64,000 bases of DNA, from NCBI GenBank assembly GCA_036172245.1, contig JAYWIR010000013.1, positions 1,302,001 to 1,366,000 on the forward strand, given 5' to 3'. The notes below the pieces were generated by a model. The model did no database searches. It was not told the origin of the DNA and saw only the letters and a list, made by a program, of their open reading frames with translations. Of the stretch, positions 1 to 55,149 are shown one piece after another. This DNA is from Raillietiella orientalis. Taxonomy: Eukaryota. Position numbers and translations under genes: made by a program. Each line of letters opens with the position of its first letter. Positions within the stretch are counted from its first letter, which is position 1.

Positions 1-239
1 GGAATTCCCAAAAGCTCTTCCAATAATCCCAGGAGCATTCAGATAACCCATCGTCCTTTTTGCAGCAACAACACGAAAAGAGAAAAAAGAAGAGAAGAGG
101 CGTAAAGGATTCCAAGACCCTAAGCGGCAGCTAAAATCTGATACGGAGCAAAGAAGGAGAGCAACGAGACACACGGGTTCTTTCGTACCCAGCTTGAAGT
201 TTTAGTGACTGCACGCATCCCAGGGGTCCCTGAAAACAA

Positions 240-600
240 CTCATCATGGCGGAAAAGATCATCAGATGCGGGACGCTCCCTCCCGTGAACTGGGGCCGGG
301 GAGTTGCCGGGGCCACGGGCCGCTCTGAGTACGCAACCAGACACAGGACCTGCCACGGGATTCTGCCGGGACGGGATAAGACAGCGCCGCCGTGGCAGCG
401 GCTGCAAAGGGTGTGTCGCTCTCCGTGTCGCCGTGCACGCGAGGCCGCTTCCACGCGTGCCTTTCTGTCCGTGGACGCACTGACTGAGGTGGACCTCCAC
501 GACCAACATGACCCACTGTCGTAGCCGGTGCGGGCTGTAGCCCTCCGTGAGAGGAAAGGGAATAACCCGACACGGGAACTGCCACGGAACTCTGCCTCTC
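240..600 (+). mobile_element. Degenerate L1/Tx1-clade ORF2 C-terminal (zf-RVT-like) fragment
   Basis: Frameshifted translation gives HRTCHGILPGRDK...CKGC...H...C, resembling the HxxLPT...CxxC...H...C motif at the end of L1-clade ORF2. Confidence 0.45.
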
Positions 601-759
601 CAATTGGGACCCCTGGTGCTTTGTCTCCTCAGGGACATCCCCGGTTTCGAGTTAAAGAGAGAAAGACCGAATGGCGCTGGTGTACCTTTCTCCATGAAGA
701 CTTCTGGATGACCGGCGAAACTGGACTCGGATGAGCTGGTAAACGGTTCCGGCAGCGAA

Positions 760-2010
760 GGCGGTGAGAGGGCGACTTGCACCTGGAACTCCCGTTGCAG
801 GAACTGCACTGGGAGACAGAACGAGCAACGGGAAGAAGCTCGCTCAAAATGAAGGAAGAAGAAACCGGAAGGTGCTTCGAGTCCGCTCCTCCCGAAGGTC
901 GGGACTCTGGAGCGAAGGTCTCCTTCCAAAGGTGGTTCGACCCCTCGGGACTTCTTCCCGTCCCCACTGAAGGCAAGAAGGGACTCGTGGGCCAACCGGC
1001 TCCTAGACTCAAAGACTTGCGTGCTCCGCATAAGATGGTGAACGGGGTCTCTTTACGTTGGAAATGACGGAACTGCAGCTCCAGATCAGGAGACTCGCTC
1101 TCGCGGCGAAACTGTGGACAGTGTCTTGATGCTCACCAAGAGAGCAACCGGCTGCGAAGGACTTTATTCGGTCCTCCTAGCCGACGACACGAGTCTGAGG
1201 CATTATGGCCATCAGCTACGTCGGATGGTTGACTTGACGAATTGCACTGCCTGGTTCCAGGAGTCAGTTTCCGCATATTGAAAGATCTACGGCTTGAGAG
1301 AGGTGAAGTGAGTTTCCTGCCTCCGGGAAGGAAGACACTCTTGAGAGCCGTTGCAGGAGATCTTCTGCAACCCACGCATGCTGCTGTGGGCTTGCTTCAC
1401 CCCCCTTGCCCCAGTGCTTCTCTCCCTGAAGGACGCAAGGGACAGCGATCTTCCTGCAAAGTGGGAGGAGTCGTGCCGCATCCAAGGCAGGAAAACACTT
1501 CTAAGCGGGTGGACAACTCGGTAGCTAGCGGACACTGAGACCCCGAGTGTCCCGCCAAAAAGACTTTTACTCTGGGGCAGTTAGCCCCAGAGTAAAAGTC
1601 CACGATTCCTCCGGAGGAGGTGAAGAGGCCGTCCCCAGCCTGCTGGAACAGGGGCACTCCCTTACTCAAGGGAGGACTTCCTGCACCTCCTGCTGGGCTG
1701 TGCCACCCTCCGACCCCTTTGGGATCGCCTCTCGACGATGCTAGAAATCCCGGTAAACGGCCTCAGGGACATTTTCAGACGCCTCTTAGCGCGTGGTGCC
1801 TCATTGCCGCCAGCCGCGTCCCTCGCGGTCTCCGAGGCATCACAGTGGCCTGGAACGCCAGAAGAGGCCTAAGTGGCAGGGATGCCATCCACTGGGTGCG
1901 GATATTTTTTGAAGATCGCCTCCAGATGGCCCCACCTGGGTGAACGAACAACACTTGTCAGCATCGTGGACAGGATGCAGAGGACGTTTGTCACCCGGAT
2001 ATTCCAGGAC
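760..2010 (+). mobile_element. L1/Tx1-clade retrotransposon fragment (end of RT through ORF2 C-terminus), same family as the 44772-47274 element
   Basis: Visible nucleotide similarity to the minus strand of ~45050-46250, e.g. AGACTCGCTCTCGCGGCGAAACTGTGGAC at ~1091 vs AGACTCGCCCTCGCGGCGAAACTATGGAC at ~46105(-). Shared peptide GITVAWNARRGLSGRDAIHWVRIF vs GIVAAWNARRRGRNGRDCIHWKRIF. Confidence 0.8.
1562..1600. repeat. Perfect 17-bp inverted repeat, 5-nt loop
   Basis: GACTTTTACTCTGGGGC-AGTTA-GCCCCAGAGTAAAAGTC. Confidence 0.95.
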
Positions 2011-2020
2011 ATTTATTATT

Positions 2021-2370
2021 CTAATTCAGTACAGAATTAGATAATAAAGTCTTTGAGTATAGTTTTTTGTGGGGGAGCACTTGGTTCTCCCACGCTGGCG
2101 GACTTGTCTTGAGCCGGTGCTGAGACCGATGAGGTCCTCTCCCTAGGCGCAGGGGAAGGAGAAACTGAAACAAAAAGAAACAAAAAGAGAAATAACGGGG
2201 AAGGGAATAGTTATATGGGGGAGTGGAGGGCAGGGAGGGGATCACTGGGCGCCTGGGTCGGTCCTCTGAATCCTATCCAGGATGCTGACGAGTTCTGCTT
2301 TTATTCTGTGTGGTAGACGCCACCTTGTTGCCGTCTCCAAAGAGATGCAGAGGACGTCTCTCAGTAAAAT
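2021..2370 (-). mobile_element. 3' end (ORF2 C-terminus plus 3' UTR) of the same L1/Tx1 family
   Basis: Minus-strand ...IKAELVSILDRIQRTDPGAQ* matches IKQELASILQRMRMT (49232 copy) and IRTELDSILNRLPKT (45070 copy). It is followed by the family 3' UTR (C-rich, TTTG-rich, GACCTCATCGGTC). Confidence 0.75.
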
Positions 2371-2379
2371 GTAATCCTT

Positions 2380-2640
2380 CCCCCCCCTCTCCCCTCCCTT
2401 ATAAACTCCTTCCCTCCTTATTTTTTCTTTTCTTTTTTGTTTGGTTGTTTGTTTTGTGGTTTTCCCTCCTCCTTCGCCGCTGGAGCTGACCTCATCGGTC
2501 TGCGTACCGGTTTTTGGCAGATGATTCGCGCGTGACAGAATAATGTGTTCTACCACGAATCTGTAATATAGAAGACGACTTTTATGATAATTTTTTTGTA
2601 ATAAATGCCCCGGAAAATCCGGGCGACAAACCTCTGGGTT
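2380..2640 (+). mobile_element. 3' UTR fragment of the same L1/Tx1 family
   Basis: Shares GACCTCxxCGGTCxGCGTAC, GTTCTACC and GTAATAAATGCCCCGG (contains AATAAA) with 44820-45050(-). A further copy lies at ~3280-3415(-). Confidence 0.8.
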
Positions 2641-2649
2641 CTGAGAGTG

Positions 2650-3250
2650 TCTCCAATCTGCACTGCAGACCTCCGTGGTAAAAGGGAGAGGCGAGACGAT
2701 CGCGGGACGGCCACCCGGAACCACCTGGTCCTCCTCGTTCCCAGCACGGATTCCTCAGGGAGTTGCGGATTCGTATCCCGTGCTGCGACGTACCTGGAGC
2801 CCATGCTCTCGCGGTCTGGAACTCGAGACGTGGTTTCCGGCGCCGCAACCGCTCTGCCGTATCGCCCATAGGAGGATGGGAGGGAAGCAGCGAATTTCAA
2901 GAGCGCATTCCCTGGATCCTCTTCCCATCAGCTGTCCTTGTCCTTCGGGATGACTTTGATCTTGGAAGTGGCCGCAGGCACACTTTCTTATTCGTATTCC
3001 CAAGTAGTGCCGGCGATCTTCCACCGGCATCTCCTTCTAGTTGAAACTGCCAGGAGCTCCTCGGGATCAAGTCGCTTCGTTCTTTCCGAGGGTTCTCTTC
3101 ACCCCCTCCTCCTCCCCGTGTGCATTGTGGGACCAGTTCCTTACCACCTAGAACTTACCGTTCTGGACTTTTCCTGCTGCCACTGGCAGACTCCACTCCC
3201 AGACCCCTCCCTCCTTCCGGAAGGCGAGGTGAGGTCGAAATGATTTCGCT
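2650..3250 (-). mobile_element. Degenerate L1-clade reverse transcriptase N-terminal part
   Basis: Minus frame with stops reads KIKVIPKDKD, resembling the IxLIPKxxKD RT motif; deleted and frameshifted. Confidence 0.45.
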
Positions 3251-3429
3251 CCAGGACCTCCTTCCACGCCGCTACAGGTTTTCCACCTGGTTGTGCTGGT
3301 GCATTGATTATTGAAAAAGTAATAAAAAAAAAGTACAGCAAGGTGGTCTTTGTAATGGTAGAACACGTGGTTTGCCACGTGAGTCCAACGTGCCGACCAC
3401 CGGTACGGAGACTGCGAGGTCTACTCCAG

Positions 3430-4495
3430 TGGCGAAGGGGGAAAGGAAACCCAGAAGGGAATCTCCTGTGCAACCTGGAAGGCTCTTGCGCTACGCAGAA
3501 TGGGGTTCAGGACCTCATGACGGGAAATGGCCATCTCATCGTGATCGGCGGCGCGTTTCCCGGGAGGTCGGCTTGAACCCTGTCACCAGAGAGGACAGCA
3601 TCCTGGCGAAGCGGGAATCGCGCGCCCGACTCTGTTCACCACGTGAAGAGAAGCAGAGGTGGAGACCGCTGGGACAACTCGACCACCGGAAGAAAGGTCA
3701 CACCCTACTCCCTACCCCCTTTCTTCCCAGGAGATGCGGAAACCTACTGCCCAGAATGCCTCCACTGGCCAGTGCAGGGCAAGGCGGGGTCGCAGCGGAC
3801 TGGCGGGGTGGGAGAGCTGGGAGAGCCGCAAGAAGGGGCTCCACGAAAATCTTCATGTGGCTCTTCCTTTCCGACAGCGTCGTGACCTCGCGTCGCAGTT
3901 TCTCTCGTTCGGCACCCGAGCGCTTCAGATGCGTTCACTTGCGGGAAGTTCACTTGGCCGTTCTTCAACCGACGAAGCCCAACCCGCTGCGCTGCAGTCG
4001 ACCCGACCCTTCCAGTGACCCCGGAAACATGAGACTGCGTTTAGCGCAGTCTCGAAGCTCCCCTTCCGATCAGGAATGCGTCGGATGTAGTGGATCCGTC
4101 TGGCAGGCAGGATGCCGGAATCTTTATCGCGATGATGACTCGTCACCCCGGGAACACCGATCAGTGGGGAAGGAGTTTGAAAACCGAAGGGCTTCAGGAG
4201 GAGCATCCCAGCGTGCAGAGGAGACGGAGAAAAGCGATGGATCTTTACGCCTCGCATCCGAGGGCTGTGGCAACGAAGACGAGTGGCAAAGATAAGACGA
4301 ATCTTGATCGAATGATTGGAAACGAACCGGGGGAAATCGGGAATGAATGGGAGGGAGGGAGGGGAAGAAGGTATGGATCCTGCCAAACTGCGGAGAGGAG
4401 GGTCAGACTTCTGATTGGACGCTGCCGCTTCCTCTCCAAGGGATCGAAGATGAGCACCTGAGCTGCGGACGGAATGCTTGCGGGTTTACCTTTCC
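3430..4495 (+). mobile_element. Degenerate L1-clade ORF2 endonuclease/linker fragment
   Basis: LIVIGG (GGDFN-like), WRPL...HT, MDLYAS (FYxxLY-like) and ADGML (GxDGL-like) occur in the expected order; heavily mutated. Confidence 0.45.
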
Positions 4496-4499
4496 TGCC

Positions 4500-5020
4500 T
4501 GCGCCGGGGCCGCGTGACTGCGGTCTCCGGGCATGGCACCATCGAGCGTCGTGGGTTCGACTCCCTCTCGGGGAAGCACCGCCGCCGGAAAAATCGGGAG
4601 TGCGTCGGGGATTCCAGTTCTCCCCGCAAGATGGCGCTGGTTGGCCTCGGATGGCTTGGGCGGGGATCGCGCGTCCGGTCCTGGCGGCACTGTCAGAGGA
4701 TAAAACCGGATGCCCCTGATGAGTGGCCGGAATTGAAGTCGATCCTCCTGGGTCCTTTCAGGAAAGAGAATCAAGGAATGCGGTTCCCTTCGGGGTTTCC
4801 CCTTCCGGTCGCTCAAAGGAGCCGTCTCGTACCGTGGAGCTGGTGGGTGGATGGCACCTCTCCAGCGTGCAAAGAAGCGCGCTGCTCCCTTCGGGGAGCA
4901 GACCCTTCCCAGAGATCGGGAAGCGTCTTTGCGGAGTTGTCTTCGAGAGGAGGAAGAAGCCGGGAGCAGATACTTTCTGGGGGGTCCCTCCGGAGAGGAA
5001 ATTCAAGAGCGGAAGCTGAT
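4500..5020 (+). mobile_element. 5' region of the tRNA-headed L1-family element (second copy)
   Basis: Colinear similarity with ~47256-46700(-). A-box-like GGGCCGCGTGA (~4507), B-box GGTTCGACTCC (4554-4564), CAAGATGGCGCTGGTTGGCCT, AAAACCGGA..CCCCT.ATGA and CCCTTCGGGG hairpins. Confidence 0.75.
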
Positions 5021-11238: not shown

Positions 11239-14200
11239 TCACCTTTTCTCTGAAGCATCTCTTGATTTCTTTTCCTCCCTTTTTCTATCTCGTGAATGGG
11301 AATCTCTTTCCTTTCTGTGATCTCGTGATCTTGATCTGTGATGTGAGCTGTGAGAGTGATGCCTACAACCCTTTTAATGAGAACTATTTTACCAAGCATC
11401 TAACCTTGATTTATGAGATTTGCTGGATGACCTACTACGGTCTTTGCTCTCATGGCCAGATGCTGAATGACGATGCCGGCGATCGGGGCTACGGCTACGA
11501 TGGTATAATTTTTCTTTCTCCTTGGCACTTTAAATTACATGCATCATTTGACACATTAATGCTATTCATAAACCTACTGATGTCTATGAGCTCTTTCCAA
11601 TGCCTCCTTCTCTCTCTCTTTTTCTCTTTCTAATCTTCTTTTTTCTCTGCGTTCTTCTACAGTTTTCTGAAAAGAATATAAATTCGGCTGATGCACTTTG
11701 TAAATATTTTCAATACAGACTTCTGGACCCTTAATAACATAAATTAGCAATTTTATAAGCATACTAAACACAACTCAAGTGTGCCATTCCTCCAATACTG
11801 CAACCAAAAATCCTCATTTAGCAGTTTCAACACAGATCATTCATTCTATTTCAAATGGTTCTCGCTCCCCAAAGCTACTAATCTTAGCATTGACATACCC
11901 TCATCATATACTCCATAAAACATCAATAGGTATGTTTTTTTTTTTTAAATATTCACAAAATATACCATCTCTCACCCTTAGATCAGGATTTCGCAAGTGC
12001 TAGCTCCACATAATTAAGGAATGCAATGCAGTCCCCACTCCCTAAATTCCTCATCACTCATGTCACACATGCTTCCACTTGTGCCATACATGGTCCATCA
12101 CATCTTAATCAAAAGAATCCCATTTACCTTTAGATCATCTAGATGCTCTCGTATTTTAATAAATCCCAAATGAAGTTTGCCTCCAAAATGATCTGCTAAT
12201 CGCCGATCGTTGTCATGAATACCTAAATATGCTGAGCAGACTTCACAAACTCGAAGTTTCTGTTGCTGATAGCTGCTGGCTGGCATGGAGTTTCTGTATT
12301 CCTGTTCTGCGTAGGTTTTTTTTTTCCGGATATCCTCAACCTACAATTATGAGTCAAACCACTGTAGCATCAACAGTAGAAAATCCATCTGGCGCCATGC
12401 GACTTGCCGGCAGCCTTACTTACAAACTGCTGCAGGTCCATAGCACCAGACCCCTTGACAGCAACTCGAGATTCACTAGTGAACCAACAGTTCAAAGAGT
12501 TTTGTAGACAAAAGTATTTATGCATGTAAGCTCAAGTTGGGAGACACTATTACTTACAGCAGCAAATGACTTGGGAGACTGATTGGCATGGCCGAAAGTT
12601 AACCTGCATACTCCCATTGTTAAATACGTACCCAGATCACTGACTAACATTACAAGCAACCAAGTCCATTTGCCTCGGGGCATAACACTTTACAACATAC
12701 CTGTTCTGGTTTTTGTTTGTTTACTTTCCTACTCGCCTATTTATACGTACCCGTCAAAGTGGATTGACTCGCGTGCATTGAACAAACATCTGAGATAGTT
12801 TTGTAGCTAAATTATTTTCTTAACTACCATTAATTTATTATTTTTATAAGATAAAATTAACTGTTGACTTAGAGATATATTTTATATATAAAAATTAATT
12901 TAAATTACTGTATTGTTATGCAAACTTTGGACAAAATGCTGATTAAGCTTCCCTAAGCCAGTACTCACGGAATATGCTATACTATGACCCCGCTATTCAA
13001 AATCCCTTCCCCTTCAATAATAACAAAGAGTGAGGTCTCATTACAGAACATCATTTTCTTCATGTGCAGCTGACATCAGGGTGTGCTGTAGAAATTAGCA
13101 AAACATCACATTACATCAGTGTGCAATCAGCTTACGTAGCTAGAACATTGTAATACAAGAAAAGAATGATGAACCTGAAAAGCGGCAATCTTGCTTTTAG
13201 TAGCACAATGTACTGCAGTACAAATCAAACAACTTCAAAAACCAATAACTGGCATAGCTATGTTGTTTGTAAAAGTTTCTGAAGACCAATTTGTTCCTCA
13301 TTATGAACACAGTGAATAAACTGCTAATTATACCAATGACATCATAAACAAGATAAGATCAGGCAGCAAGGCTCAAGTTGAAGGTATAAAAATGGCACTA
13401 GATTAACACATTTAAGCTACAAAAACTGAAATAAAACCAGATGGGTGACCTAACCCGTCAGAAAATCATAAGGAAAAATTTTGAAGGAGTAAATAGCATT
13501 TAGTTGTTTAGAAAGAGAATCTTGAAGAGTATTGCATACAAAACTTCAAAAGCATGCAATACGGGGGTAAAAATTCTCCTACTGCAAAATCACCAACTTT
13601 TCAGGCTTTTTTCAATTGCAAATGCAATTGACTTTACCTCCTCCATCAACTGCATGCTTTCTTCCACATGCCCTTCTGCACCCAATTCTTCAGCTTTTGA
13701 CAGTTTAATACCGATCAGTTCTGCAAGTTCATGGACTTTGTTTGCCTTTGCTGCAACTTCAGCACTTAATTCTTCTTGAGTTTCAGCCAATCTTTTCTTG
13801 GCCAATTCCGTACGCCTGTCACATTCATTAATAAATGACTGCAGATGCTCCATAGCCTAAGAAATACTGTCAAGTTGCTAAACCAAAGCAAATTACTTAC
13901 ATCAATATCATAATAATAATCTTTTTGTTTGCTGGCTTGTTCAAAATCTGCTCTTAGGGCTAGATCATGGATCTTTGGACATTCTCCAATGTCCATACGC
14001 TAAACATTACAATTAAACATTACAGAGGGCCAAATACAAGTACAAATGCTTACTGTTGAGGCCAAAATATCATGAGGGCAGCAGCCCAAGAGGAAACTTT
14101 TACATACTTTCGGATCATAAAATCTGACCCTAGGATTGATGTCACCTGAGGTACGAAAAAATATAAACACTTGCAAAAAGGCAATATCATACCGTTTCTG

Positions 14201-14648: not shown

Positions 14649-17600
14649 TTAAGTGCTACTTCCACTTTTACTTGCATGCAATCCACGAGTGGAAACATTG
14701 CTGACCCAACTATAAAATCCAGGTGGTGGATCTGGAATTTCACTAAAGTTCATATCTGATTTTTTTTTATCTGTTTCTTCAGAGTGTTTTTTATCTTTTA
14801 AAAACCTATTGAGTCTTAGATTTGGTGCTGACAAAAAATCCATTGTCAACTGTTTGCACTGATTATTAACACCACTTTCCTTATTTGGTTTTGATACTGT
14901 CTTTGCATAAGTTTCTGAATCTTGAAAGGCATCTTCTAATGTAAGAAACTGGAGAGTATTTCCTGAAAATGTCTCTTTCTTGTTTCTGTCATCTTTCTGG
15001 ATGGAATGATTTCCGCTGCTTTGCACATTTGTGTTCAAAAACTGTGCTCCTAAACTTGAAAGCTGAAGCTGCTGCTTCATTTTATTATTAACTTCTTGAC
15101 TGATGCTAGGCTTGTCAACAGCTTTAAAAGAATGATTCGATTTTGATGGCACTTTTCTTGTCTTGTGTAATGCTGGGAAGTCATCATCATATCTTGGAAT
15201 AGTGCCCACATTCAACGATACTTGTCTTGAAATCCTTTCAGCCAATGTACTTCCATAGGAACTTGTTGGAATTTCTGATGCGCTACATGCACTAAGGTCT
15301 GGAAATTCTTCTTTCGATGTCACAGCAGGTGCTGTTTTCGCTTCCCCTTGCATGGGATTATTGGATGCCCCTAACATGTTGGATCTATGAAGAAAAAATC
15401 ACTAAAACAAGCACTCCATTTTACTTACAAAGTTTTACCTATCTGAAAAACCATTAGTCTCACTTGGTCTCTTGGTGTGCTGATCTCTATTTCTAGGGAT
15501 TTTTTTTCCACTTGTAAATTCTATATCAACAGTCCGTGCAGTCCGAGCAGCTGTTTTTGATAAATCTTTGGAATGACACTTCAAACAATGCGCTAGAAAA
15601 TAAAAATAATAATGAAATAAAAAAATATTAAGTACCTTGAAAATCTATTGCATTCTGAAATACTGACGAAAACTTTTCCTCTTGACAACCTCCTGTTTCA
15701 CAAAGAAAATGACTTTGACGAAAATGCTCCCTTAAAGACTTATAATTTCTGAAAACAAGCATATGGTCTTTGTGATTTGGTTGATTTACTTACTCATAAA
15801 AGCATTGAATGCCATCATCATCACATAAATGGCAAGAATAATGTGCAATTCTCAAATGCTTAAATAACTCATCATTGTCAAAAAATCGTTCACTACAAAA
15901 TTCACACAATGGATGTCCTTTGTAAGACTTATCATTAGTATCTCCCTTTCTCTTATGATAATGAAGATCTTTCAACGAATACAGTTTTCTTTCAGAAGTA
16001 AAAATCTGCAACAGTTACAACAGGAATTAAATATAATCGATAGCACACTATGAATGAAGCAAAAGAAGTCTCCTAAATGTGTATGCACCTCAATGTGGAC
16101 CAAGCAGAAAGCATTTTATCATCAACTCTACATTGCTATATAAATTTATTCACATGTCTGTCATACAATAACCTCAAGAGAGAATACATATGACCTGTCT
16201 AATTTCGTGAATGATCACAAATTTTTCTAAAAGAATACCTTTACTCAGTACTAATAGTGTAGTTATTGTATCATCTAAACCCCACAGCACCATAACAAAT
16301 CAACATTTTAATATCACATATTACAAATATTCAATACGATCAGCAAATTTGATTTCAGAACAATTTTATTCCTATATTTATTTTTCACTGGCTTTTGCTA
16401 ACTCATAACTCATAATTGTATTTAAGCAAAAAAACGAAAACTGAACAAAAAAGATCGCATTACATTGAGACAGACATTTAGATTCCTTAAAACCTGAAAA
16501 AGAATCCTTGGCTTCACCATTTGTAATGTAGTTGATAATGACTGTATAAATTACTTCATTATACTAATGCAAAACTTTTCATTGCACTTTAAGTAATGAT
16601 GGCATAGTTAATGCATCACAGGATAAACATAATACACTACTTTAATTTCTGAATAAACACAGAACATCGTAGCAAATTTCAAGGTTTGACTAAAATCATT
16701 TCTTTATTTGTAATTAAAGACTCAATTAATATTGATACCAAGGACATATCCATCAATGGGTTGGATGTAAATGGCACATGAACTGATGTAATGCAGAAAC
16801 AATTGAAGAATGTATGTGTGAGGGGGTAAAATAAAAACTAGACAGAATGAAGAAATGGCTTTTTGCATACAAGCTCAAAATTTTGCACTTTATCAGTCAA
16901 CCAGAATTTTTTCAATATATTCTCACTCAGTACCATTAGACATAACAAGCAACAAAGCAATTGTGGCTACCTATATTTAAATGCTCCAATAACAACAGCA
17001 CAATCCAAGTAAATATTGCATACGCAATTTTTTTTGTCTGCAAATCTGTTTCAATTACTCAATGGTGGATAACTAATTTTTTTCATAAGTACATTTCTGA
17101 TGTGAAGGAACATTGCATAGCAACAAACAGGAATACATTTTTTAAAATATATTATTTCAAAAGCACTTTAACTATTATAAAAATACTGCTTCTAGAAGAT
17201 TATCGTGAACAGCACTTTAATCTATAGCATTTACTAATTTCATTCTCAGCATCTGTCATTTAAAACTAACAATGAGTCTAAAACCTCAAAAAAGAGCTTC
17301 CTTGAGCTTTTGCCACATTAGCAGCCTAAGAAGGCAAAAGCAGAATAGTCTCCTTATTTGTGTACCAGATAAATGGCAAGAATCACTACATTCCAACTAG
17401 TAAATGAATAAACTGAAACATGCATCTTTCCAGAATTTCAAATTTCAAATGTTTGCTTGAACCCAATCATTAATCACAAATGGTTTTAATACTTGTACTT
17501 AATTTTAGAAGTATCAAAAACACTTCTTTTTTCTGTTTATATTAAATTTTAAAGGGATAGTTAGTATTTTACAAAATACTTTACTTTCAGATGTTCCAAA

Positions 17601-18064
17601 CATATGTTACAGAAGTACAAATCATGGGCATTCTTGACATGCTTTTTTAATTGCCCAAAATGTTTAAATTTAATTTGATCAGTACATGTAATACAAAAAT
17701 GTTCCAGAAGCTTTTGATGCATTTGTAGTATACCACTACTTGCGAAAAAAATACCATATCTATCATCACGAAGTTCACATGAATCGATTTGGGATCTAAA
17801 ATTTCCAATGGATTTTGAAAATACAACCTAAAAGAATTGAGCATTGAGAAACATTAATTCAAACTTATCAAACTATCTAACCTCTGACAGTAATTTTCTA
17901 CAAATAGGGCACTCCTTATTTTCATAGAGTACTCTGATTCTGGTGGAACATTCATAGCATATACAATGCTCACATTCACCAAATGCAAACACAGTAACTG
18001 GTTTTACACAAATATTACATGTTACTGGATGAAGAATATCGGCATCTTCATTACAAGAACTCAT
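14649..18064 (-). CDS. ZNF598: E3 ubiquitin ligase ZNF598 (ribosome-collision sensor, Hel2 family), 6 coding exons, 546 aa
   Basis: Exons (-): 18064-17882, 17827-17585, 16005-15794, 15748-15636, 15592-15439, 15384-14649. N-terminal RING (CNIC...CEHCICYECSTRIRVL...CPICR), C2H2 fingers, the family signature KGDTNDKSYKGHPLCEFC, EFPDL/DFPAL motifs and PPPGF. Confidence 0.95.
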
Positions 18065-19166
18065 TCTAAAAGACAATTAATCAGTTAAATGCATTATGGT
18101 GCACCAATGTAATAAAGAATGGCATTTGGGGAATCAATGCAAATAGCTTTCACTTGCACTGTGAAAATCAGAGTTTATCACTATACTGAAACAGGCATCC
18201 AAATGGATCAACACACAACTAACACTCCAGAACACAACATTTATTAAGTTGTTCTAATTATTATATAAGCTTACATAAATAAATAGACCAATTGACGCAT
18301 TTTTTTTCTTCTATCACCCAAATATGCATTCTTCCCAATTATCATACCTTAAATGGAAAAAAATTATTATAACGCACAATTGTATTCAGTTATCGAAAAG
18401 CTCATTGCAATTTCGAATGAAAATCAATGTGCTTCAAAAATCAATCATCGTAATCATTCATTTTCAAGCATTTTGCATCGGATTGTAAAATTACTGGAGT
18501 ATTTACGTTGTATCTACCAAGGTTACTTACTGATATGCAAGATTACAAGAAAACAAAATACACAACGTTTAAAATTACAGATACTTAATTTTTCCTTATG
18601 TTTTCCCCCAAATGAACTTACGTTTGCAGCAACACAATATCACAGATCATCAATGCCGCACTAATAACATGCCAGATTTCATTATCATGAATAACCTCAT
18701 TATTCGCAATTACCAAGCAGATAAAATTTCAGAAAGAAAGTTGATCCTCAGGATTAACAAGACATTGCTTTCATTCTGATATTCAAATCATTAATAAATT
18801 ACAATTATAACTACTCCTCTCAATAAATTTCTATTACTTTTTTTCCGTCGAGAAAGGGCTAATATTTAAAGACTACCTTGTAATTGACATAAATTTTAGT
18901 GCATTGAATTTTAAAATTCCATTCATTTTACATCTAAAATTTGTGAGAAAATATGAATAAAAATCAGCTAATTGTGATGCAAGTTATTTTCCTTGGATAC
19001 AAATCATCCATAAATTTTAAGGGGTAAATCCCAAGTTTTTTGTTATTCACAGTATAAGTAGACGAAGTTTTATATATTCAGAGTACGGTCCATGTAAGCA
19101 AATAATAAAACGAAAATCAATTCAATAGTATAGCAGTGTCGTGGTTACATCTGTTTTAGTTCGTAG

Positions 19167-44771: not shown

Positions 44772-47274
44772 TTTTTTTAAAGACCAGTAGCGACCCCACG
44801 AGGAGACCGTCACTATTGACCCAGGATGATTCTCACCAGGTTATGCCGGGGCATTTATTACAATTAAGTAATTAAAATACATTTTTGGGGTAGAACGGTT
44901 GGTTGTACCATGAGCAGTGAACCTGCCGAGGACCGTACGCTGACCGGCGAGGTCCGCTTCGGCAGCGTGGGGGAAGGGAATACAAAACACAAACAAATAA
45001 ACAAACAAAACAGGGGAGGGGAATTTATAAACGGGGGGTGGTGAATCGAAGGAGGGATCACGATATGCTACCAATAGTCTTCGGTAGCCTGTTCAGGATG
45101 CTGTCAAGTTCCGTCCGGATAACCCCCAGGTGGAGTCATCTCGAGGAGGTCCTCAGGAATATCCTCTTCCAGTGGATGCAGTCCCGGCCATTTCGGCCTC
45201 TTCTCCTGGCATTCCAGGCTGCCACGATTCCGCGGACGCCGCACAGAACTGCTAAGGACGCGGCTAGCGGCAGAGCGGTACGTGCGAAGAGGAGTTTGAA
45301 ACTGGCCTGGAGCCACACGCCGGGGTTCCTAGCATCGTCGCAAGGAGATCTCAAAGGAGTCGGAGAACAGCACAGTCCAACAACAGGTGCGAGAGAATTG
45401 CCTTCTTCCCGCACCTGTCGCGCTGAGCGCCCACGCCCTTCCATGTCCAGTGGTGAAGGTGCGCTTCGCACAGGATTCCCTCCATGCCCCACCAGCAACT
45501 CCACCACTTCTGCCACTTGAGGGGGAGAGTTGCACTGTTCCAGTACGCTGGGGACCACTTCACCTCCTCCAGATGGATGCCGAGGAGCTCTTCCCAGCGT
45601 TCTGGTCAGTGGAGTGGGACACTCGGGTTCGCAGCGTCCGTCACTTCCCGAGTTGTCAACGCCCCCAGAAGTTTTCGCCGCTATTCAGCAAGTGACTTCC
45701 CACCTTGCCGGGATTACACTGTCCCTTGCGCCCCTTAGGGAAGGCAGCACTGGGGCAAGGGGCGTACAGGAGACCCACCGCATCTTCACCATCTCCTCCA
45801 ACGACTTGCGAGTGTTGACGCCTCGCTGCAGGCAGGCGTGCCCAGACTCGCTTGCGCCATGGATCTTTCCTCAGACGAACTCCTGAAGCCAGGCAGTGCA
45901 GTTCGCGAGGTGGAAGGAGATCCAGGTGCTCTCCTCCACCAGGGCAAGCACCTGGTGGAGTTGGTATATCCTCGAGGTCACCTCAGCAATCTCTCGCGAG
46001 CGATGAGGTACGTGAGTCCCTTCGCAGCCTCTTGCGCACTCCTTAACGCCCTGGTACTGGTGCGCACCAGGACGTTGTCCATAGTTTCGCCGCGAGGGCG
46101 AGTCTTCTAAATTGGGGCCAACACTCTATCCTCTTCAGAGTAAGACCCAGTCCGCCATCCTTACACAGAGCACACAAGTCTTTGAGTCTGACTCTGGACC
46201 TCCCTATGCCCAGAGGGCTTTTATCAGGAGGTCCTTGGCCCGTCTTCCTCTTGACGTCAGGTGGGGCGGGGCAAACAAAAAGCAGGAGGCGGAGGAAGGG
46301 AGCCGCAAACGAGTTCCAAGTAAAACTTGCCGTTCTGGATGAGGGGGCGATCGCCATCTCTACCTTTTGGAGACGGTCGGACCAGTTTCTGCTTGGCAGA
46401 AATCCCCCAACGGAACGCCAAGGTACCTCAAGTACCCGTCCTCTGATTTTTCTTCATCCTTGGCTACGGGTACTTTTTTTTTCGGGTTTTCTTTTTCTTG
46501 GTTCGCTAAGTACCCAAGAACCGTCACGTGCCTCACGGCTCACGTAGCTCTTTAACACTGTTCCATGCCACCCGCGCAAGGTGCGTGTAATTCTTCATGA
46601 TAGGGGGTACCCCAAGAGGGGTCCACCCTATGAATCCAGGAAGGGCTTGGAGTTCTTTGCTCTCACGCCTGGGGAGGGATACCCGAAGGAAGCCTCCACG
46701 CTGGTTCTCTCCGGAAGGACCCTCGGAGGGGTCTGCTCCAATTTTCTTCTCCGAAGGGAACCGGAAAGGATGCGCTAGTAGGAATTTCTTCTCCAGAGGG
46801 GACCCACAGTGGAATCGCTTTCTGTTCACTCCTCTGAAGAGAACCCTGAAGGGACACTTCCGAAATTCAGAAGGGACGCTGCTTCCCCGAAGGGGGATCG
46901 CTCTCACTTCCTTGCACTTTCTGGAGAGGTAGCTTACGCACCTACTCCATCTGAAAGGATCGGAGGGGTCCCCCATGATGGGAGTTCCGCTCTCCGTTGA
47001 CAACCGGAGAGGGAACTCCCACCCCTCGATTCCTCCTCGAAGGACCCGGAGGTCGACTCCCTTTGTTCCGCCCTTCATTAGGGGATTCCGGTTTTAACTA
47101 CTACCGGTGCCATGCTCGAATGTTTGTAGGCCAACCAGCGTCATCTTGCAGGAGGAACTTGGGACCCAACGCGCCGTGGTCAGTTTCTGGCGGAGGATTA
47201 AACCCGCGACACTTGGTAGTGTCGCGCGGAAGCCGTAACCACGAAGCCTCCGACGCGGACGATTCTCATTACAT
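44772..47274 (-). mobile_element. TSD-flanked 2.5-kb internally deleted L1/Tx1-clade element with a tRNA-derived head
   Basis: Direct repeat GAAAATCGA(-) at 47283-47275 and 44771-44763; A7 tail at 44778-44772; 3' stem-loop ~44781-44822; AATAAA in the 3' UTR. ORF2 relics RYLGVPL (~46420), LCALCKDGGLGL (~46170) and zf-RVT ...RCGKKAILSHLLLDC (~45400). A- and B-box-like motifs at 47249 and 47204. Confidence 0.8.
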
Positions 47275-48849: not shown

Positions 48850-49115
48850 AGTTATGCGCTCCCTAAGAAAAAGGTGGACTTGAAGCAAATCCAGGAGCTC
48901 CTGCTATCCTCGACTGCGCTCACGATTCGCACCAAGGACGAAGATGTAGCGGAGGCCCTGATCGAACAGACCATAGTCCTGAATCGGAGAGTGCTACGCG
49001 GGTCAGCAGAAATCTCCATGACGACGGATTCCAACACTGGGGTAACTTGTAACACCAGCCAGGCATGCGGGACTTCTCTCAGTATGCAGAAGTCCAAAAG
49101 GTGGCATTGCGCAAC
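48850..49115 (+). mobile_element. Possible L1/Tx1 ORF1 (RRM-like) fragment
   Basis: GC-rich open frame LTIRTKDEDVAEALIEQTIVLNRRVLR abutting other L1 fragments; assignment tentative. Confidence 0.3.
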
Positions 49116-49139
49116 GGATTTTTTTTTTTTTTTTTTTTC

Positions 49140-50130
49140 AAGAGAGGCGATGGGGCCTCCACAGCAGCAGAGGGGAGGGGCCAAACAAAAAGAAAAATAA
49201 ACAAAATAAAAATAAAACAATTTTGAAGGGATTACAGTCTACTGGGCGAGGTCATCCGCATCCTTTGGAGGATGCTGGCAAGCTCTTGCTTAATGTAAAT
49301 GTCCAGGGGGCGCCGTCTGACCGTTATCCGTAGAAGGAGAAGAGCGAAGTGGATGGCGTCCCTGCTCTGGGTTCCTTCGCTGGAGTCGATCTGCGTCGCT
49401 ACGATTCCACGGAGGCAGCACAGTGCTGCAAGGGCTGCGGATGGCTGCAGGGCGTCCCGCACAAAGAGAAGCCGCATTACGTCTCTGGGGTGGCCGCCGG
49501 GGGTTCCTAGGGTCGGGGCAAAATGTCCCCAAAGGAGCCGGGAGGCAAGACCACTAGGAGGTGAGGAAGGTCCCCACACCTTGCACAGTTTGGTTCCACA
49601 TACCTGTGTCCGGTGATGCCGGCGGGCGTTGCACGGGAGGCCCAATGCCGCAGCAGCAGCGCCGACTCCTGCCAGTTCCAGGGGAGGATGCGGGTGTTCA
49701 TGAGCACCAGGAGCCACTGAAGGTCTTCCTCCGGAATACCCAGCAGCTCGTCCCAGCGCAGAAGTCATCGAGGTGGGGCCCTCGGGGTCGCAGCGTCTGC
49801 AAGCTGAGCCGTCGTCCACTTGTCTAGTCTTTTTCTCCTACCGGAGATTTCGGCACTGACTTCCCATTTTGCTGCGAGGTTGCTGCTCATGTATTCCCTG
49901 AGGGAGAGCAGAGCGGCGGCAAGAAAGGTTTTGCCCTCCCACGCACTCTTCATGGGATCTCTCAGGATCTCCCGGAACGTGCAATTGTTGTTGCGCGCAT
50001 ACAGGGAACGTCGCATGTGTTCCACGATTGGCTCCTGAGTCCTTGTCCTTGTGCGAATGGTTTCCTGCAACCAGGCGCAACTGTTCGCGGGGCGTCACGA
50101 AATTCATCCGTTTTTCCTGGCCAGGGTGGC
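49140..50130 (-). mobile_element. L1/Tx1-clade ORF2 C-terminal fragment plus start of 3' UTR (related subfamily)
   Basis: LLRWDELLGI...NTRILPWNWQ...CARCGDLPHLLVV (zf-RVT), then AALAALCCLRGIVA...RDAIHF...IKQELASILQRM, homologous to the 45 kb and 1.8 kb copies. Confidence 0.75.
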
Positions 50131-50359
50131 CACCTGCCGAAGGTGCAGTCCGCAGTAGATGAGACTGAGAGGACGGCGTGCAAGCTGAAAGATCGTGTCA
50201 CCGGTATATCTTATGGGACGAGACGTTGCCTCATATTTTGAACCATTGCATGAGGCACTCTCATCCCTACACCCTGCTAGGCGCGATGCCATAATAGACA
50301 GGATGCTGGCAGCAGCGGAAGATACCGCAGGATGGCAGTTAATCTCCACGAAGAAGCAC

Positions 50360-51100
50360 GATGAGTTGAAGTTGTTAGGTAAGGGATGTTATGAGTGAAC
50401 TGATAGGAATGAGTGGGTTATAAGTTCGGTCCGGTAATTAGGATAAGGGTGATGGTGGGGACGTGAGTGATTTATCCTAAGAATTGGGGTTCAATGAGGA
50501 GGAGAATGGAGTTGATGCTATTTCTATGTTATTTAAGTGGGAGAATATATGGAATGTTGATGAGTGGGTGGGCAAGGAATGCGAAGTACAGTTGTGTTGG
50601 TGTGATACGTTCAGTAGCTTAAATGATTTCTTATGAAGTGTGTATGATTATTGTGTTGATGGGTGTAGTAATGTATATGGGTAGATATAGTTTAAAGTTC
50701 GAGATGGGGAGTGCTTGATGTTTTGTATGTCAGGGAAATTGGTTGTGCGAATTCTTGCATGTTTCGAGGAAGTTAATCCTTTAGTTTATGATCTTTCGGA
50801 AGGTGAGTCCGAGTTATTTTCAAGATACAAAATGGAGTATGAATGTTTGCTTTCTGTTTTTGTCAGAATATAGATTTATTGTTTACTGAAGGTTGTTGAC
50901 AAGGCGAACGTATATAAGGAGTGGGGTTAAGGGTTTGATTGTAATGTATGTGATTATATGATTTCGGAGAGTTTTGCCGCGGAATTGATGAGGGGTTGGT
51001 GTATATGGGTTAGGGCGAGGAGTTTATTGTATTGTAGTTTTTATTTGTTATTATGCGGAAGAGGGGTGGTGATGATAAGGTTAGGGAAGTAAATGTGGGT
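50360..51100 (+). pseudogene. ND1: NUMT of mitochondrial NADH dehydrogenase subunit 1
   Basis: In invertebrate mitochondrial code: KLLGK...GMLMSGWASNAKYSCVGVMRSVA*MISYEV...DLSEGESELFS.Y.MEY...IMWFRSVLPR, matching ND1 GWxSNSKY, AQTISYEV, EGESELVSGFNVEY and WVRxTLPR. Strong G+T skew, frameshifts and a CAA>TAA stop. Confidence 0.92.
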
Positions 51101-51103
51101 TAG

Positions 51104-51294
51104 AACTGATACCTAACTGTAAACAGCTACTCCGAAGTCAACACTCTCTGAAGACCTCATACAAGTTAAAAGATGACTACGCACCTACGCAAGATTAGCA
51201 GTCATTTCCAAGGAACAAGGGGACCTCGGCACACCACATCTACAAGGTATTTCCAACTAGCAGAGGGTGTTTCACGAGCTGAACACCAAATACC
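51104..51294 (+). pseudogene. Endogenous CRESS-DNA virus (circovirus-like) Rep N-terminal fragment
   Basis: N*YLTVNSYSE (RCR motif I, WCFTLNNY-like), then after a small duplication/frameshift EDLIQVKR*LRTYARLAVISKEQGDLGTPHLQG (motif II; PHLQG at 51234-51248). Motif spacing is about 30 residues; motif III and the helicase are absent. Confidence 0.7.
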
Positions 51295-51299
51295 TCTCC

Positions 51300-53900
51300 C
51301 TCTCCAAGTATCGGAGCCGGTACGAGACGAGGAACGAATTCCATAGCGTTACATGAGACATCGGGGGGCTGGAGAAGAAGAACATTGCCCGGATATCATC
51401 TGCATCCGGCACGAAGGTCAGGTTCAGTCCAGAAAACGATGGAATGGGATCTTTGCTCTGTGGTTGGTCATTCACTCACTTCAGCAACGTCCTCCATCTT
51501 CAAGATATAGCGCTATGTCCAGGCGGATGCTCTGCCGCAGTTCCTGATCCCAATTTCCCTCTTTAGAACTCCTTGCAGGATAGCAGCGGCAGGCACTGTG
51601 GTTCGTGGAACTGTGGATGCCTTCACGATTTGGGGCATCGAAGGTCAAGCGCGTTACAAAACTGGAGAGATCATGGTCGCCTTCTCCATGCCACTATAGA
51701 GAAGGCTGGAAATAGCTGTATCGGGGTAATGAAAAACCTAATCCTACATCTTTGAAAGATGGCGAACGACTCATCCTACCCAGAAGTCACCATGGAGGAA
51801 ATGAAAATAGGTTCTCTGGATTGCTGAAAGATGTGGGGGCAGGACCCAACAGTGTGCCAATCTCGCACTGCCAACAGTACCTGAGTGCCAACCTACTCAC
51901 TTTTCAAGAATTCACGCTACTGATTCGGGGAAAAGGAATGCTTCCTGCTTCATTCCAGAGCAAGATGAGAGGGGTGCCGAAGGGAAGAGGCCTAAATTAG
52001 GTCAACCAATGGAAGCCGATCGCTATCCTAAATACGGATGCCAGGTGACTGGCCAATACCAAAGGGTCGGCAGAGCATCATGCCGACGACGACTTCTCCG
52101 TACTGGACATGCGCGGTGCCCAAGCGACGCGTTTCTGACAACGTGAAGTGAGCCAAGAAGCCATCGGTTACCAGCAGTACGTTGGCATGGACCTGGAGAT
52201 TTGCTTCAGAGGAGATATTTTATACGGTGGACCATGGAACCTCCTGGGATTCCTGAAAAACTGGGTCTCCGGAGGCATTCCTGAGAGTACGTAAGGATCG
52301 TTAACAAGGAAGCTCTTTGCGAGGTCCAAATCATCAGGCAAGAAACAGAAACCCTCAGCGTGGAAAGGGGTATCCGTTCAGGAGGCGCTCTCATTCCGAT
52401 GCTTTTCGTCATGCACACGGAAGGGGCATCGTCGTTTTTCAACAGCGGACTCCTGCGAGGCAACCAAATGGATGAGGAGGAGCTAACACTCCGAGATCAT
52501 GCCGATGATCTTCTACCTAAAGAGCGAGAAGAATCAAAATGACATGCCTGGATGCAATAAGCTACCCAAAATAAGGACTTCGCTTGGTTATCAACGCCAA
52601 TCAATCGAAAATCATGCCCATCGGGATGATGGATGTCTCCACATTGAGGGATCATGGATTCCGAGCAGTGGACTTCGTAAAATACTGGAAATTGATATGG
52701 AATACGCATCCAAACCGTCAACAGTGTGGAAAGAATTCCTGTGAGGGTCAGAGGGAACGCGGGAGAGTATCTTCGGTTCGACTTGAGCATGAAACAGAGG
52801 ATCAGCCCGTGGAATGGCTTTCTGCCTGCCAAGGTGCTCTTTGGAGACACTTTCTGCCCAATGGGCAAGACGACACGCATGGAAGCAGAACTGCAAAGGA
52901 AACCTTGTATGGGCGAGAATCTGCACCGAAGATGAGACTCAAGTTTCTATGCTGCTCGCGAGAGGAAGGCGCGACCGTGGGAAGCTCACTAAAACAATCC
53001 ATGCAAGTCACGGAGGCGCAGCATCTCCTGAAACTCGCCGGGGATTGGGAAAAGCGTTCGTTTGCGGTTTGCGGAACCTACCCGCAGTTGTGGAGCAGCT
53101 CGAGCAAATTGGAAAATTGGGAGTAGGTGAGCACTTACCCTAACTGTTAGAGGTGAACCAATCTAAAAATAGTGCCTTGTAGAAAGAGAATATGGAACGA
53201 AGAGCTGGCCTTGACGATTTCTTGTTTCCTCCTCCATTCCACGGGAGACGTGGCAGTGGATGCACTCGGATTGAACATCGGAGACCGCGAAAAGTTCACT
53301 ACGAGTGGCAATCGATGGGATTGCGTGCCTGGCAGAGAAAGAGACCGCGATGCTCTCGCCACATCTGCTGTCAGCTGCTTCGGGATTCAAAATTGAGCAT
53401 GAGAGAGGTTGGAACAACAGTCTTGACGAGAGACCTGTTACCTAATGAAGAGCTCCTCACATCTTATCACTGTGGATATCCGACTGGAAGTTGGAGGACC
53501 CGAGACTGGATGGGAAATAGAATGATGAGCTTTGCACGGCATGTGGAGACAAGGGGATCCGACTCCATGTGCGCACCTGCCCAACACGACACTGAGATTG
53601 AAGGATTCAGGAGGAGACGAGTCTGCATTATGGAACGAGATTGGGAATCCTAAAAGGGTTGTTTGATAAGGAACGGCGTCGTCTCTCTATACAATCCAAT
53701 GGTGCGGACGGCAATCGCCTCTTCTTCACGAGTATCGTGAAGAGAAGGATGAAAATGAGAAAGGTGAGAAAAGCATCTCAATTCTTCTTCTGCATTCTGC
53801 ACCCCCTGAGTGCATTCAGGACTCCTTGGCTGTTTCATTCCCCCTTTTCCTTCGAGATGCTGAGGCTCCAGAAACGAGGTAAGTGACCAGTGCGGAATCT
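51300..53900 (+). mobile_element. Degenerate L1/Tx1-clade ORF2 (RT through C-terminus), a different family
   Basis: WKPIAILNTDAR (~52010), RGIRSGGALIPMLF (~52366), HADD (52498-52509, YADD position), LVINANQSKIM, LCCSREEG; many stops and frameshifts. Confidence 0.8.
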
Positions 53901-55149
53901 CTACGCGTTGGTGAGACGGGAACAGCGTGAAGAGATGCAGGATGGTTAACCAGGGATCTCAACGACTTCTGTTGTCTGTATCAATCCACGGATTCTGTCC
54001 TTCTCAGAGGCTTCACTAATGGCATCTTCCACCTCAGTACATTGGGTATTGTCCAACACCTAACATTGACAGATGACCTCCCTCCTCCCAGGAGAAAATA
54101 ACTTTACAGCCGAGGTGAGCTCAAGGGCGTTAATAATAAGGGTGGCGGACAGTATGCGCTTCAGTGGTGCAGCACAAGTAGCATTAAGGACCTAAACAAG
54201 AAGGTCCTTTCCGGAAGACCGGTATCCCTCGACTTCGCTCTGGACAGATCCAAGTGGCTATCATTTCCTGCCATCCATTAAACCATCCTTCACGTATCTT
54301 TCCATATTTTGGCGTTTTCTCTGAATTAAAAGCGATCAAAACTCCTAGAAGAGCGCAAGGTCAGCAGAGGAGCCGACGAAACAACCAAGTGAAATCAGCG
54401 TCACAGGATGTGTCGTCTCAAGCTCTGCAGTGCCTCACACCCACTCGCAAGAAGGTGAAAGGATCCGTGGCGGGGTAAGGATAATGCAACATACCCTTTA
54501 GGGGCTTTGGATGGGCTCTGGGGTTTTAGCAACACGTTAGACGACACTTCATGATGATAGCAGAACCACTTGAAAACTAACGAATAGTCTACTTCGAAGG
54601 GTCAAATGGCTGCGGGAACCGTAATGAGGTGGGGCCATTTGACATTCCCAGAAGAGCGTTTTACGGTATTGGAAAAGACTTCCTGGACTTACTTCCCGGG
54701 AGCAGATCCCTTGATCTTTCATGACGAAGAGGAGAGTGGAAGAGGAAGTGCCTCAAATCACAATCCCATGTTTTCATGCTTAAGATGAAAAAAATATGAA
54801 ACACGAACATGTTATGGACGAAAATGACAAACTTGAATAGTTTTTGTGGCAAGTCCGCTACTACGGTTAAGCATTCAAGGATATCTAGCGAATGCTAGGT
54901 ATACACCACGTTTGGTCCTAGAAGGAAACTCATACTTTTTTTTTTTTTTTATTCATCTTCACTTTTAAAAATCGAAGCATGCGTTCCTACTTCCAGTTCT
55001 TAGAATTCTCTGTATCCCAAGGCATTAAAGAACAATGCATAATGAGGAATGGCTGCACATGCAGCGTTAATTATATTCGTAAGCTTGACGCTTAAAAACA
55101 ACTTTGCTATTTTTCCCTTTTTCTTATTGCCCTCCTCGCTTCTAGCATC

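Follow-up and report, generated by a model that had tools for sequence, protein, structure and literature searches.

Can the long fourth intron of a LUC7L-type gene of Raillietiella orientalis divert the transcript into a form that carries a premature stop, and might it do so in answer to the level of the gene's own product? The gene lies on the minus strand of a 64,000-nucleotide (nt) stretch of contig JAYWIR010000013.1 (assembly GCA_036172245.1, positions 1,302,001 to 1,366,000), the whole of which we call the window; positions below are those of the window, and the features of the gene are all read on its minus strand. Splicing factors commonly steady their own level by switching to a stop-codon isoform, and self-limiting isoforms of this kind are well known among them, the SR protein genes with their ultraconserved poison exons being one example. 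A first-pass annotation, made from the DNA alone, had proposed that intron 4 contains a 39-nt poison exon followed by ten motifs resembling 5' splice sites (donors), and that these together sense the level of LUC7. We observed that an RNA contig joins exon 4 to a 3' splice site (acceptor) which that annotation had missed, and that the join introduces an in-frame stop. We favor, at a probability of roughly 0.45, the reading that intron 4 is an unproductive-splicing module of this LUC7L/LUC7L2-type gene. What the first-pass annotation had observed was partly confirmed; its interpretation was partly supported as a general idea and was not supported in its specific anatomy.

A stop-introducing splice in intron 4

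Our evidence from RNA consists of Logan contigs from two public runs, X1 and X2, with k-mer depths of 2.5–5.3, to which a 90% likeness filter was applied and whose depths were not used to rank isoforms. X1 is a run that was only guessed to be RNA, yet spliced junctions are present in its contigs, and X2 is a metatranscriptome. One X1 contig joins position 13638, the last nucleotide of exon 4, to position 13085; the 552 nt that it skips begin with GT and end with AG when read on the minus strand. This contig has 30 nt of exon 4 on its short side and continues to position 12929. Translation in the exon 4 frame across the join reaches a TAA at 13043-13041 after 14 codons, followed directly by a TGA at 13040-13038 (codons 15 and 16, respectively), and the confirmed junctions 12128/11666, 11578/11527 and 11405/11362 all lie downstream. 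Intron 4 therefore offers a splice option that places a premature in-frame stop upstream of the last junctions of the gene. The earlier proposal that stop-introducing splicing occurs in this intron is borne out to this extent, with the acceptor at 13085 and not at 12789. The junction is the solid part of the case, and the array of donor-like motifs described below is its hypothetical part.

The sequence around position 13085 has the marks of a good acceptor. The alternative 3' splice site itself, TGCTAATTTCTACAG, occupies positions 13086 to 13100 and is accompanied by a CTAAT branch-like motif (13098-13094) and a TTTCTACAG tract. At position 12968, 117 nt past the acceptor, there is a donor-like site, TCC/GTGAGTAC (TCC/GTGAGT), which is right-handed with a Balance score of +3; we used the definition of Balance given by Kenny et al. 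2025 (PMC11842720). Together, the two sites delimit a candidate poison exon of 117 nt (12969 to 13085), of which the start is set by the junction and the putative end by the donor, and which would encode HTLMSAAHEENDVL ahead of the 2 adjacent stop codons. The donor of exon 4, which ends in phase 0, is GAG/GTAAAG; it has no G at +5 and a Balance score of -1.

The hexamer TGATGT occurs 4 times within 71 nt on the minus strand (13048-13118), with 2 copies shortly before the 13085 acceptor and 2 shortly after it. The two strands of the window together contain 58 copies, and the significance of the cluster is uncertain, as the motif was picked post hoc among all hexamers. The cluster could represent binding sites for a regulator.

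Parts of intron 4 are present in the RNA contigs beyond the junction itself. An island from 12929 to 13217 is covered by contigs of both studies and is identical in them to the window, with X1 covering 12929-13085 and X2 covering 13060-13217, each with 0 other letters; the X2 contig is unspliced across the 13085 acceptor. A second X1 contig, unstranded and of 167 nt, covers 12624 to 12789; it has a substitution at 12677 and a 1-nt insertion after 12688, and it spans the donor-like motifs at 12750, 12736, 12700, 12648 and 12631, all of them unchanged. The parts of the intron outside RNA cover are 12341-12623, which includes the motifs at 12603, 12557, 12423, 12419 and 12407, and the segments 12790-12928 and 13218-13637.

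We observed that the second of these X1 contigs begins exactly at 12789, the position at which the first-pass annotation had opened its poison exon, and that the other X1 intron contig stops at 12929. These 2 positions are the edges of an AT-rich spacer of 139 nt (12790 to 12928; 17% GC), which contains the only AATAAA of the intron, at 12839-12834. Because both X1 intron contigs end at the spacer edges, where assemblies break easily, we do not take the start at 12789 as proof of an acceptor; an assembly break at the spacer is the simpler explanation. Also, contig ends are not precise markers in this material, since the end of the X1 exon 5 contig, at 12335, misses the true exon boundary by 5 nt. 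That end directly follows a second AG (GTTGAG/G) within the exon and may reflect either the end of coverage or a frame-shifting alternative acceptor.

The identity of the host gene and the numbering of its introns, both of which had been proposed from the DNA alone, were upheld by Pfam, by relatives and by a gene model backed by RNA. The LUC7 family (PF03194) is matched on exons 3, 4 and 5. The match on exon 3 (E 2.4e-07) scores 31.2 bits, slightly below the curated cut-off of 33 bits; exon 4 (13638 to 13856), both of whose end junctions are present in RNA contigs, covers profile positions 86-157 (E 2.4e-15); and exon 5 (12128 to 12340), which begins VEDIRKKK and contains the second zinc finger region, covers positions 158-229 (E 1.3e-23). 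In a listing of 120 relatives of exon 5, those that carry a LUC7 name are called Luc7-like, Luc7-like 1, Luc7-like 2, Luc7-related or Alsin2, are 84–93% identical and are nearly all from arthropods; the name Luc7-like 3 is absent among the 120. As judged from its sequence, the host gene is thus a member of the LUC7L/LUC7L2 subfamily of the LUC7 family.

Five canonical junctions were found in RNA contigs (14054/13999, 13901/13856, 12128/11666, 11578/11527 and 11405/11362), the third of them in both runs. The junction of exons 1 and 2 was predicted from the genomic sequence, and the coding sequence that includes it is open to a stop at 11239. In this model the gene has seven introns (11362-14192). 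Five of them measure 42–54 nt, four confirmed by RNA and one, presumably intron 1 (14192-14146; 47 nt), predicted. Intron 5 measures 461 nt, and intron 4 (12341 to 13637) is by far the longest of the gene at 1,297 nt, the sizes being taken from the contig junctions and the gene model. The boundary of exons 4 and 5 was set by cDNA-like relatives in which the 2 exons abut. No direct junction from 13638 to 12340 was present among the RNA contigs examined, in which, at their low depth, the absence of a form is uninformative.

Divergence between the contigs and the window provided a further observation. In exons, differences between contig and window number 16 in 569 positions for X1 and 11 in 534 for X2, or 27 in 1103 when pooled (approximately 2.5%), and 12 of the 13 differences listed are synonymous. 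In contrast, the 323 intron positions of X1 contain 1 substitution and one 1-nt insertion, and the 158 of X2 contain 0 differences, or 1 substitution in 481 positions when pooled. Fisher tests of intron versus exon gave p = 0.0007 for the pooled counts, 0.009 for X1, 0.025 for X1 with the insertion counted and 0.08 for X2, the runs not being independent of each other. The low divergence of the intron may reflect a constrained cassette, or one of the other sources named below, in what is a shallow, contig-only comparison with a slightly diverged lineage.

Donor-like motifs downstream of the candidate exon

The ten donor-like motifs described by the first-pass annotation are all present on the minus strand at the coordinates that it gave, 9 of them with G at +5 and 8 with T at +6, and two of them are of the GC type. 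They lie in a block (12400 to 12792) that is indeed richer in GC than its surroundings, with 43.5% as compared to 33.2% in the remainder of intron 4. For all scores we used a 5' splice site weight matrix of preset frequencies, which is not a trained model. By this matrix the block contains 12 sites scoring at least 3.2 in total, 7 scoring at least 5, and 6 in which the right side (+3 to +6) scores at least 4; the corresponding means for the window, per 393 nt and with both strands counted, are 2.7, 1.2 and 0.6, respectively. The density of motifs in the block is therefore 4–10 times the window mean. Among 213 windows matched for GC content, none reached 12 sites of the first class or 6 of the third, and 2 reached 7 sites of the second. 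Within intron 4 itself, the 12 sites scoring at least 3.2 in the 393-nt block compare with 5 in the other 904 nt.

The excess was also seen against shuffled versions of the block, with block-level probabilities that ranged from 0.0006 to 0.07. Mononucleotide shuffles gave p = 0.003, 0.008 and 0.0006, and dinucleotide shuffles gave p = 0.03, 0.04 and 0.07 for the total score and p = 0.003 for the right-side score. As plain words, GT, AGT and GTA are over-represented 1.4–2 fold in the block, whereas elsewhere in intron 4 they occur as often as expected. With regard to handedness, 7 of the 12 block sites have a Balance of at least +1 (right-handed), as compared to 247 of 862 background sites (p = 0.03), and 11 of the 12 have G at +5, as compared to 60% of background sites. 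In the aggregate, the block shows a local excess, tilted toward right-handed sites, which is weak on its own and not compelling.

A direct repeat of 33–40 nt with the core CTACAAAACT was also noted; the copies, which are 76–78% identical, lie at 12817-12779, at the start of the block, and at 12519-12480, approximately 300 nt downstream.

Weighing the readings

On the reading that we favor, namely that intron 4 is an unproductive-splicing module, the donor of exon 4 would have 2 possible partners. Pairing with the acceptor of exon 5 (12341/12340) would be the productive route, and pairing with the upstream acceptor (13086/13085) would lead to the in-frame TAA after 14 codons. The resulting isoform would lack the second zinc finger and would be expected to undergo nonsense-mediated decay or to be retained in the nucleus. 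Right-handed donor-like sites may recruit U1 small nuclear ribonucleoprotein (snRNP) loaded with LUC7L, the site at 12968 first and then the cluster from 12750 to 12407, and U1 recruited in this way could act across the 13085 acceptor to define the stop-codon exon. High LUC7L would then favor the unproductive route and lower its own productive mRNA in a negative feedback, because the binding of LUC7L-loaded U1 would define the stop-codon exon; for this step we argue by analogy with two published systems, discussed below. A more elaborate form of the proposal is that the feedback evolved in this invertebrate gene independently of the vertebrate cassette in intron 1, with the stop-codon exon defined by the array of about a dozen right-handed pseudo-donors instead of a single such donor; the array would act as a multi-site landing pad for LUC7L-loaded U1 snRNP and would turn LUC7L concentration into a graded or cooperative choice between the 2 acceptors, or into nuclear retention of the partly spliced RNA. 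We consider this elaborate form improbable as a whole.

Several observations weigh against the module. On the RNA side, the material amounts to a few shallow contigs, assembled, unstranded and unquantified, from two runs, one of them only guessed to be RNA. Splicing out of the candidate exon was seen in no contig, and the contig that carries the junction reads through the 12968 donor to 12929; the five array motifs that have RNA cover are likewise all unspliced. The near-identity of the intron segments could stem from a reference-like strain in the samples or a mixture of strains, from haplotype blocks, or from the 90% likeness filter, which would hide more diverged intron contigs. A look-elsewhere test, in which every 400-nt block of the 64 kb was shuffled, is relevant because the block is the densest spot picked from the whole window, and it was not significant: the window-wide shuffled maximum equaled or exceeded the block counts in 77–98% of cases for the total score and in 25–34% for the right-side score. 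The enrichment is thus real at the local scale and unremarkable as the densest place of the window. Two other spots, at about 45.7 kb and at 50.2–50.7 kb, are equally dense, and the predicted RNA fold of the block is no better than that of shuffled sequences (z = +0.41).

Comparison with other species adds 2 further points on the same side. Our cross-species set consisted of 80 metagenome loci that encode relatives of exon 5 and are at most about 80% identical to it. Most of these loci are cDNA-like, with a gap of 0 between exons 4 and 5 in most of the 80; a gap is present in L014, L024, L027, L033, L036, L077, L078, L079 and L080, L002 has a gap of 1 nt, and in L031 exon 4 is not within reach. 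We found no similarity to intron 4 in the 80 loci (best E 0.06), and no comparable donor array in the five longer gaps that were scanned (L024, L027, L031, L077 and L080). One apparent parallel was dropped. An island with four donor-like sites is shared by the orthologous introns of L024 (3700-3900) and L031 (1240-1440) at 92–96% identity, and was set aside because it encodes a retrotransposon-tail-like peptide; its translation ends in DWIELAQDRDRWRALANAVMNLWVP and a stop, which we take to be the tail of an arthropod non-LTR (long terminal repeat) retrotransposon. The donor of the orthologous intron in L024 (2289-2297) is of the GC type (GAG/GCAAGT), as compared to the GAG/GTAAAG without +5G in the window.

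The alternative that survives best is that the junction is real and is a minor or constitutive by-product, due to noise or to slow removal of a long intron, and that the motif cluster reflects the composition of a GT/AGT-rich and possibly transposon-derived insert with no role as a sensor. We regard this as unlikely, although a good part of the evidence is compatible with it. The outcome of the look-elsewhere test, the dinucleotide-shuffle values of only 0.03–0.07 for the total score and the over-representation of GT, AGT and GTA as plain words are what composition would produce; the ends of the X1 intron contigs at the spacer edges are as expected of assembly breaks or of repeat boundaries; and the island in L024 and L031, if it is the retrotransposon tail that we presume, indicates that inserts land in the orthologous intron. 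However, an in-frame stop, good acceptor signals and a donor of Balance +3 placed 117 nt further on look like a built exon, and the intron pieces are nearly invariant while synonymous sites vary. Sites strong on the right side are enriched even against dinucleotide shuffles (p = 0.003). Moreover, the block has no second copy within the 64 kb and gives no Pfam, Rfam or tRNA-like signal.

The anatomy of the first-pass annotation fares less well, and we think it quite unlikely. It held that a poison exon of 39 nt (12751 to 12789) is opened by the acceptor CAG at 12792-12790, and that the ten donors act as a graded LUC7 sensor that triggers inclusion of this exon or retention of the intron. The 39-nt stretch does read MFVQCTRVNPL and then a TGA (12756-12754) in the exon 4 frame, an RNA-run contig does start exactly at 12789 and cross five of the motifs, and the motifs show local enrichment with a bias toward right-handed sites. 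But the tract ahead of this acceptor is purine-rich, its sole YTRAY branch-like motif being 40 nt upstream, which makes for weak acceptor signals, and the contig start coincides with the edge of the 17% GC spacer in material where contig ends are imprecise (12335 being off by 5 nt). The junctions that this anatomy predicts, from 13638 to 12789 and from any of the array donors to 12340, were seen in no contig, an absence that proves nothing at such depth; the sole junction observed from 13638 leads to 13085.

It is very improbable that the exon beginning at 13085 is an alternative last exon polyadenylated within the intron at the AATAAA of 12839-12834, with the GT-rich block as a downstream element or as U1 suppressor sites (telescripting): the signal is the only one of the intron, lies 246 nt past the acceptor within AT-rich sequence and has GT-rich ATGTTTGTTCAATG after it, and motifs resembling 5' splice sites are known to suppress polyadenylation through U1 (PMC3826338), but the contig from 12789 to 12624 extends beyond the putative cleavage site, no contig has a poly(A) end, and suppression by U1 and LUC7L would be expected to yield a positive and not a homeostatic feedback.

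Other searches of the window returned little that bears on the intron. No Rfam model reached its gathering score anywhere in the 64 kb; near the intron, the only hit with E ≤ 1 was a CRISPR-repeat model at 12798-12833 (E 0.03), which is AT-rich and was taken as chance. No tRNA-like genes were found, the open frames of intron 4 matched no Pfam family (best E 0.22), and there was no second copy of intron 4 within the window. A scan for bacterial promoters and terminators was at background level, and is irrelevant for a eukaryote. The immediate upstream neighbor of the LUC7L gene, likewise on the minus strand, is a gene for a ZNF598-type RING E3 ligase (14652-18076), recognized by a match to Pfam RING_ZNF598 on 17876-18076 (E 8.5e-14). 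Elsewhere, GC-rich islands (50–60% GC, in a window otherwise at ~30–39%) are located at 1-5000, 45000-47000 and 49000-54000. They contain long open frames without a Pfam family and without an Rfam hit, they hold other dense spots of donor motifs, and the segments 1005-1670 and 45516-46189 are weakly alike in inverted orientation (67–73%). These islands are probably repeats.

Relation to known systems and significance

The unproductive-splicing module that we favor has its closest precedent in the human LUC7L gene, and the background on which the first-pass annotation drew, that LUC7 is a U1 snRNP factor and that the LUC7L/LUC7L2 subfamily favors 5' splice sites with a strong intron side, agrees with Kenny et al. 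2025 (PMC11842720). In that study, inclusion of a premature stop-codon (PTC) exon in human LUC7L is promoted by LUC7L and LUC7L2, a right-handed donor of Balance +3 is necessary for the regulation, and the alternative exon 2 (AE2) of LUC7L2 is homologous to the LUC7L exon. The R. orientalis gene belongs to the same subfamily, alternative splicing likewise brings in a premature stop, and the putative donor of the candidate exon at 12968 is as strongly right-handed, at Balance +3, although the contig reads through it. However, the human cassette is an alternative second exon that follows exon 1, whereas here the event is in intron 4 and intron 1 is only 47 nt long. There is no positional homology between the two, and therefore the R. 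orientalis cassette, if real, would be an independent one. The 2 cases also differ in that several further donor-like motifs follow here, and in that regulation by LUC7L would hold in R. orientalis by analogy.

The second of our two models is exon 7a of U1-70K (SNRNP70), as described by Roesel-Hillgaertner et al. 2013 (PMC3798272). Three cryptic 5' splice sites in one short exon region are bound there by U1, are needed to activate a 3' splice site and respond as sensors to particles that contain U1C; the 7-7a junction was seen, and the 7a-8 junction only when decay was blocked with cycloheximide. Both systems concern a gene of the U1 snRNP, and in both a cluster of cryptic 5' splice sites lies downstream of an intronic alternative 3' splice site. 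In our material this arrangement consists of the used acceptor at 13085, the donor-like site at 12968 and 12 more from 12750 to 12407, and the upstream junction was detected in contigs and the downstream one was not, as in U1-70K. The spacing differs, with one site here at 117 nt from the acceptor and 10–12 more at 335–678 nt, and binding of U1, decay and regulation, which were demonstrated for U1-70K, are for R. orientalis predictions from the likeness.

Two other systems are less close. The decoy exons that cause intron retention, such as those described by Parra et al. 2018 (PMC6097662) for intron 4 of SF3B1, are also stop-containing cryptic exons in a long intron of a splicing factor, with RNA that keeps parts of the intron. 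In contrast to the present case, the decoy model needs no donor cluster, and in our contigs only parts of the intron were seen and not retention of the whole. The ultraconserved pseudo-5' splice sites to which U1 binds (PMC13100119, 2026) are intronic look-alikes that steer a neighboring alternative exon via U1 and are never spliced, which resembles the role considered for the array; those, however, are single motifs conserved across animals, and in that report the knock-down of the fly LUC7 homologues had no effect on the pseudo-5' splice site event.

A self-limiting LUC7L cassette is thus already published for human, and what would be new here is a cassette at a non-homologous position in an invertebrate LUC7L-type gene. 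In the literature, we found no description of a stop-codon exon in an invertebrate LUC7 gene or of a cassette in its intron 4. That the multi-donor array serves as a dosage sensor is an interesting idea with weak support; if functional, the array would offer a natural test bed for the number of U1/LUC7 sites that is needed to define an exon. If the reading is true, a second cassette with a right-handed donor, placed in a different intron, would represent convergent evolution of the same logic, and would support feedback based on donor handedness as a general property of the LUC7L2 subfamily.

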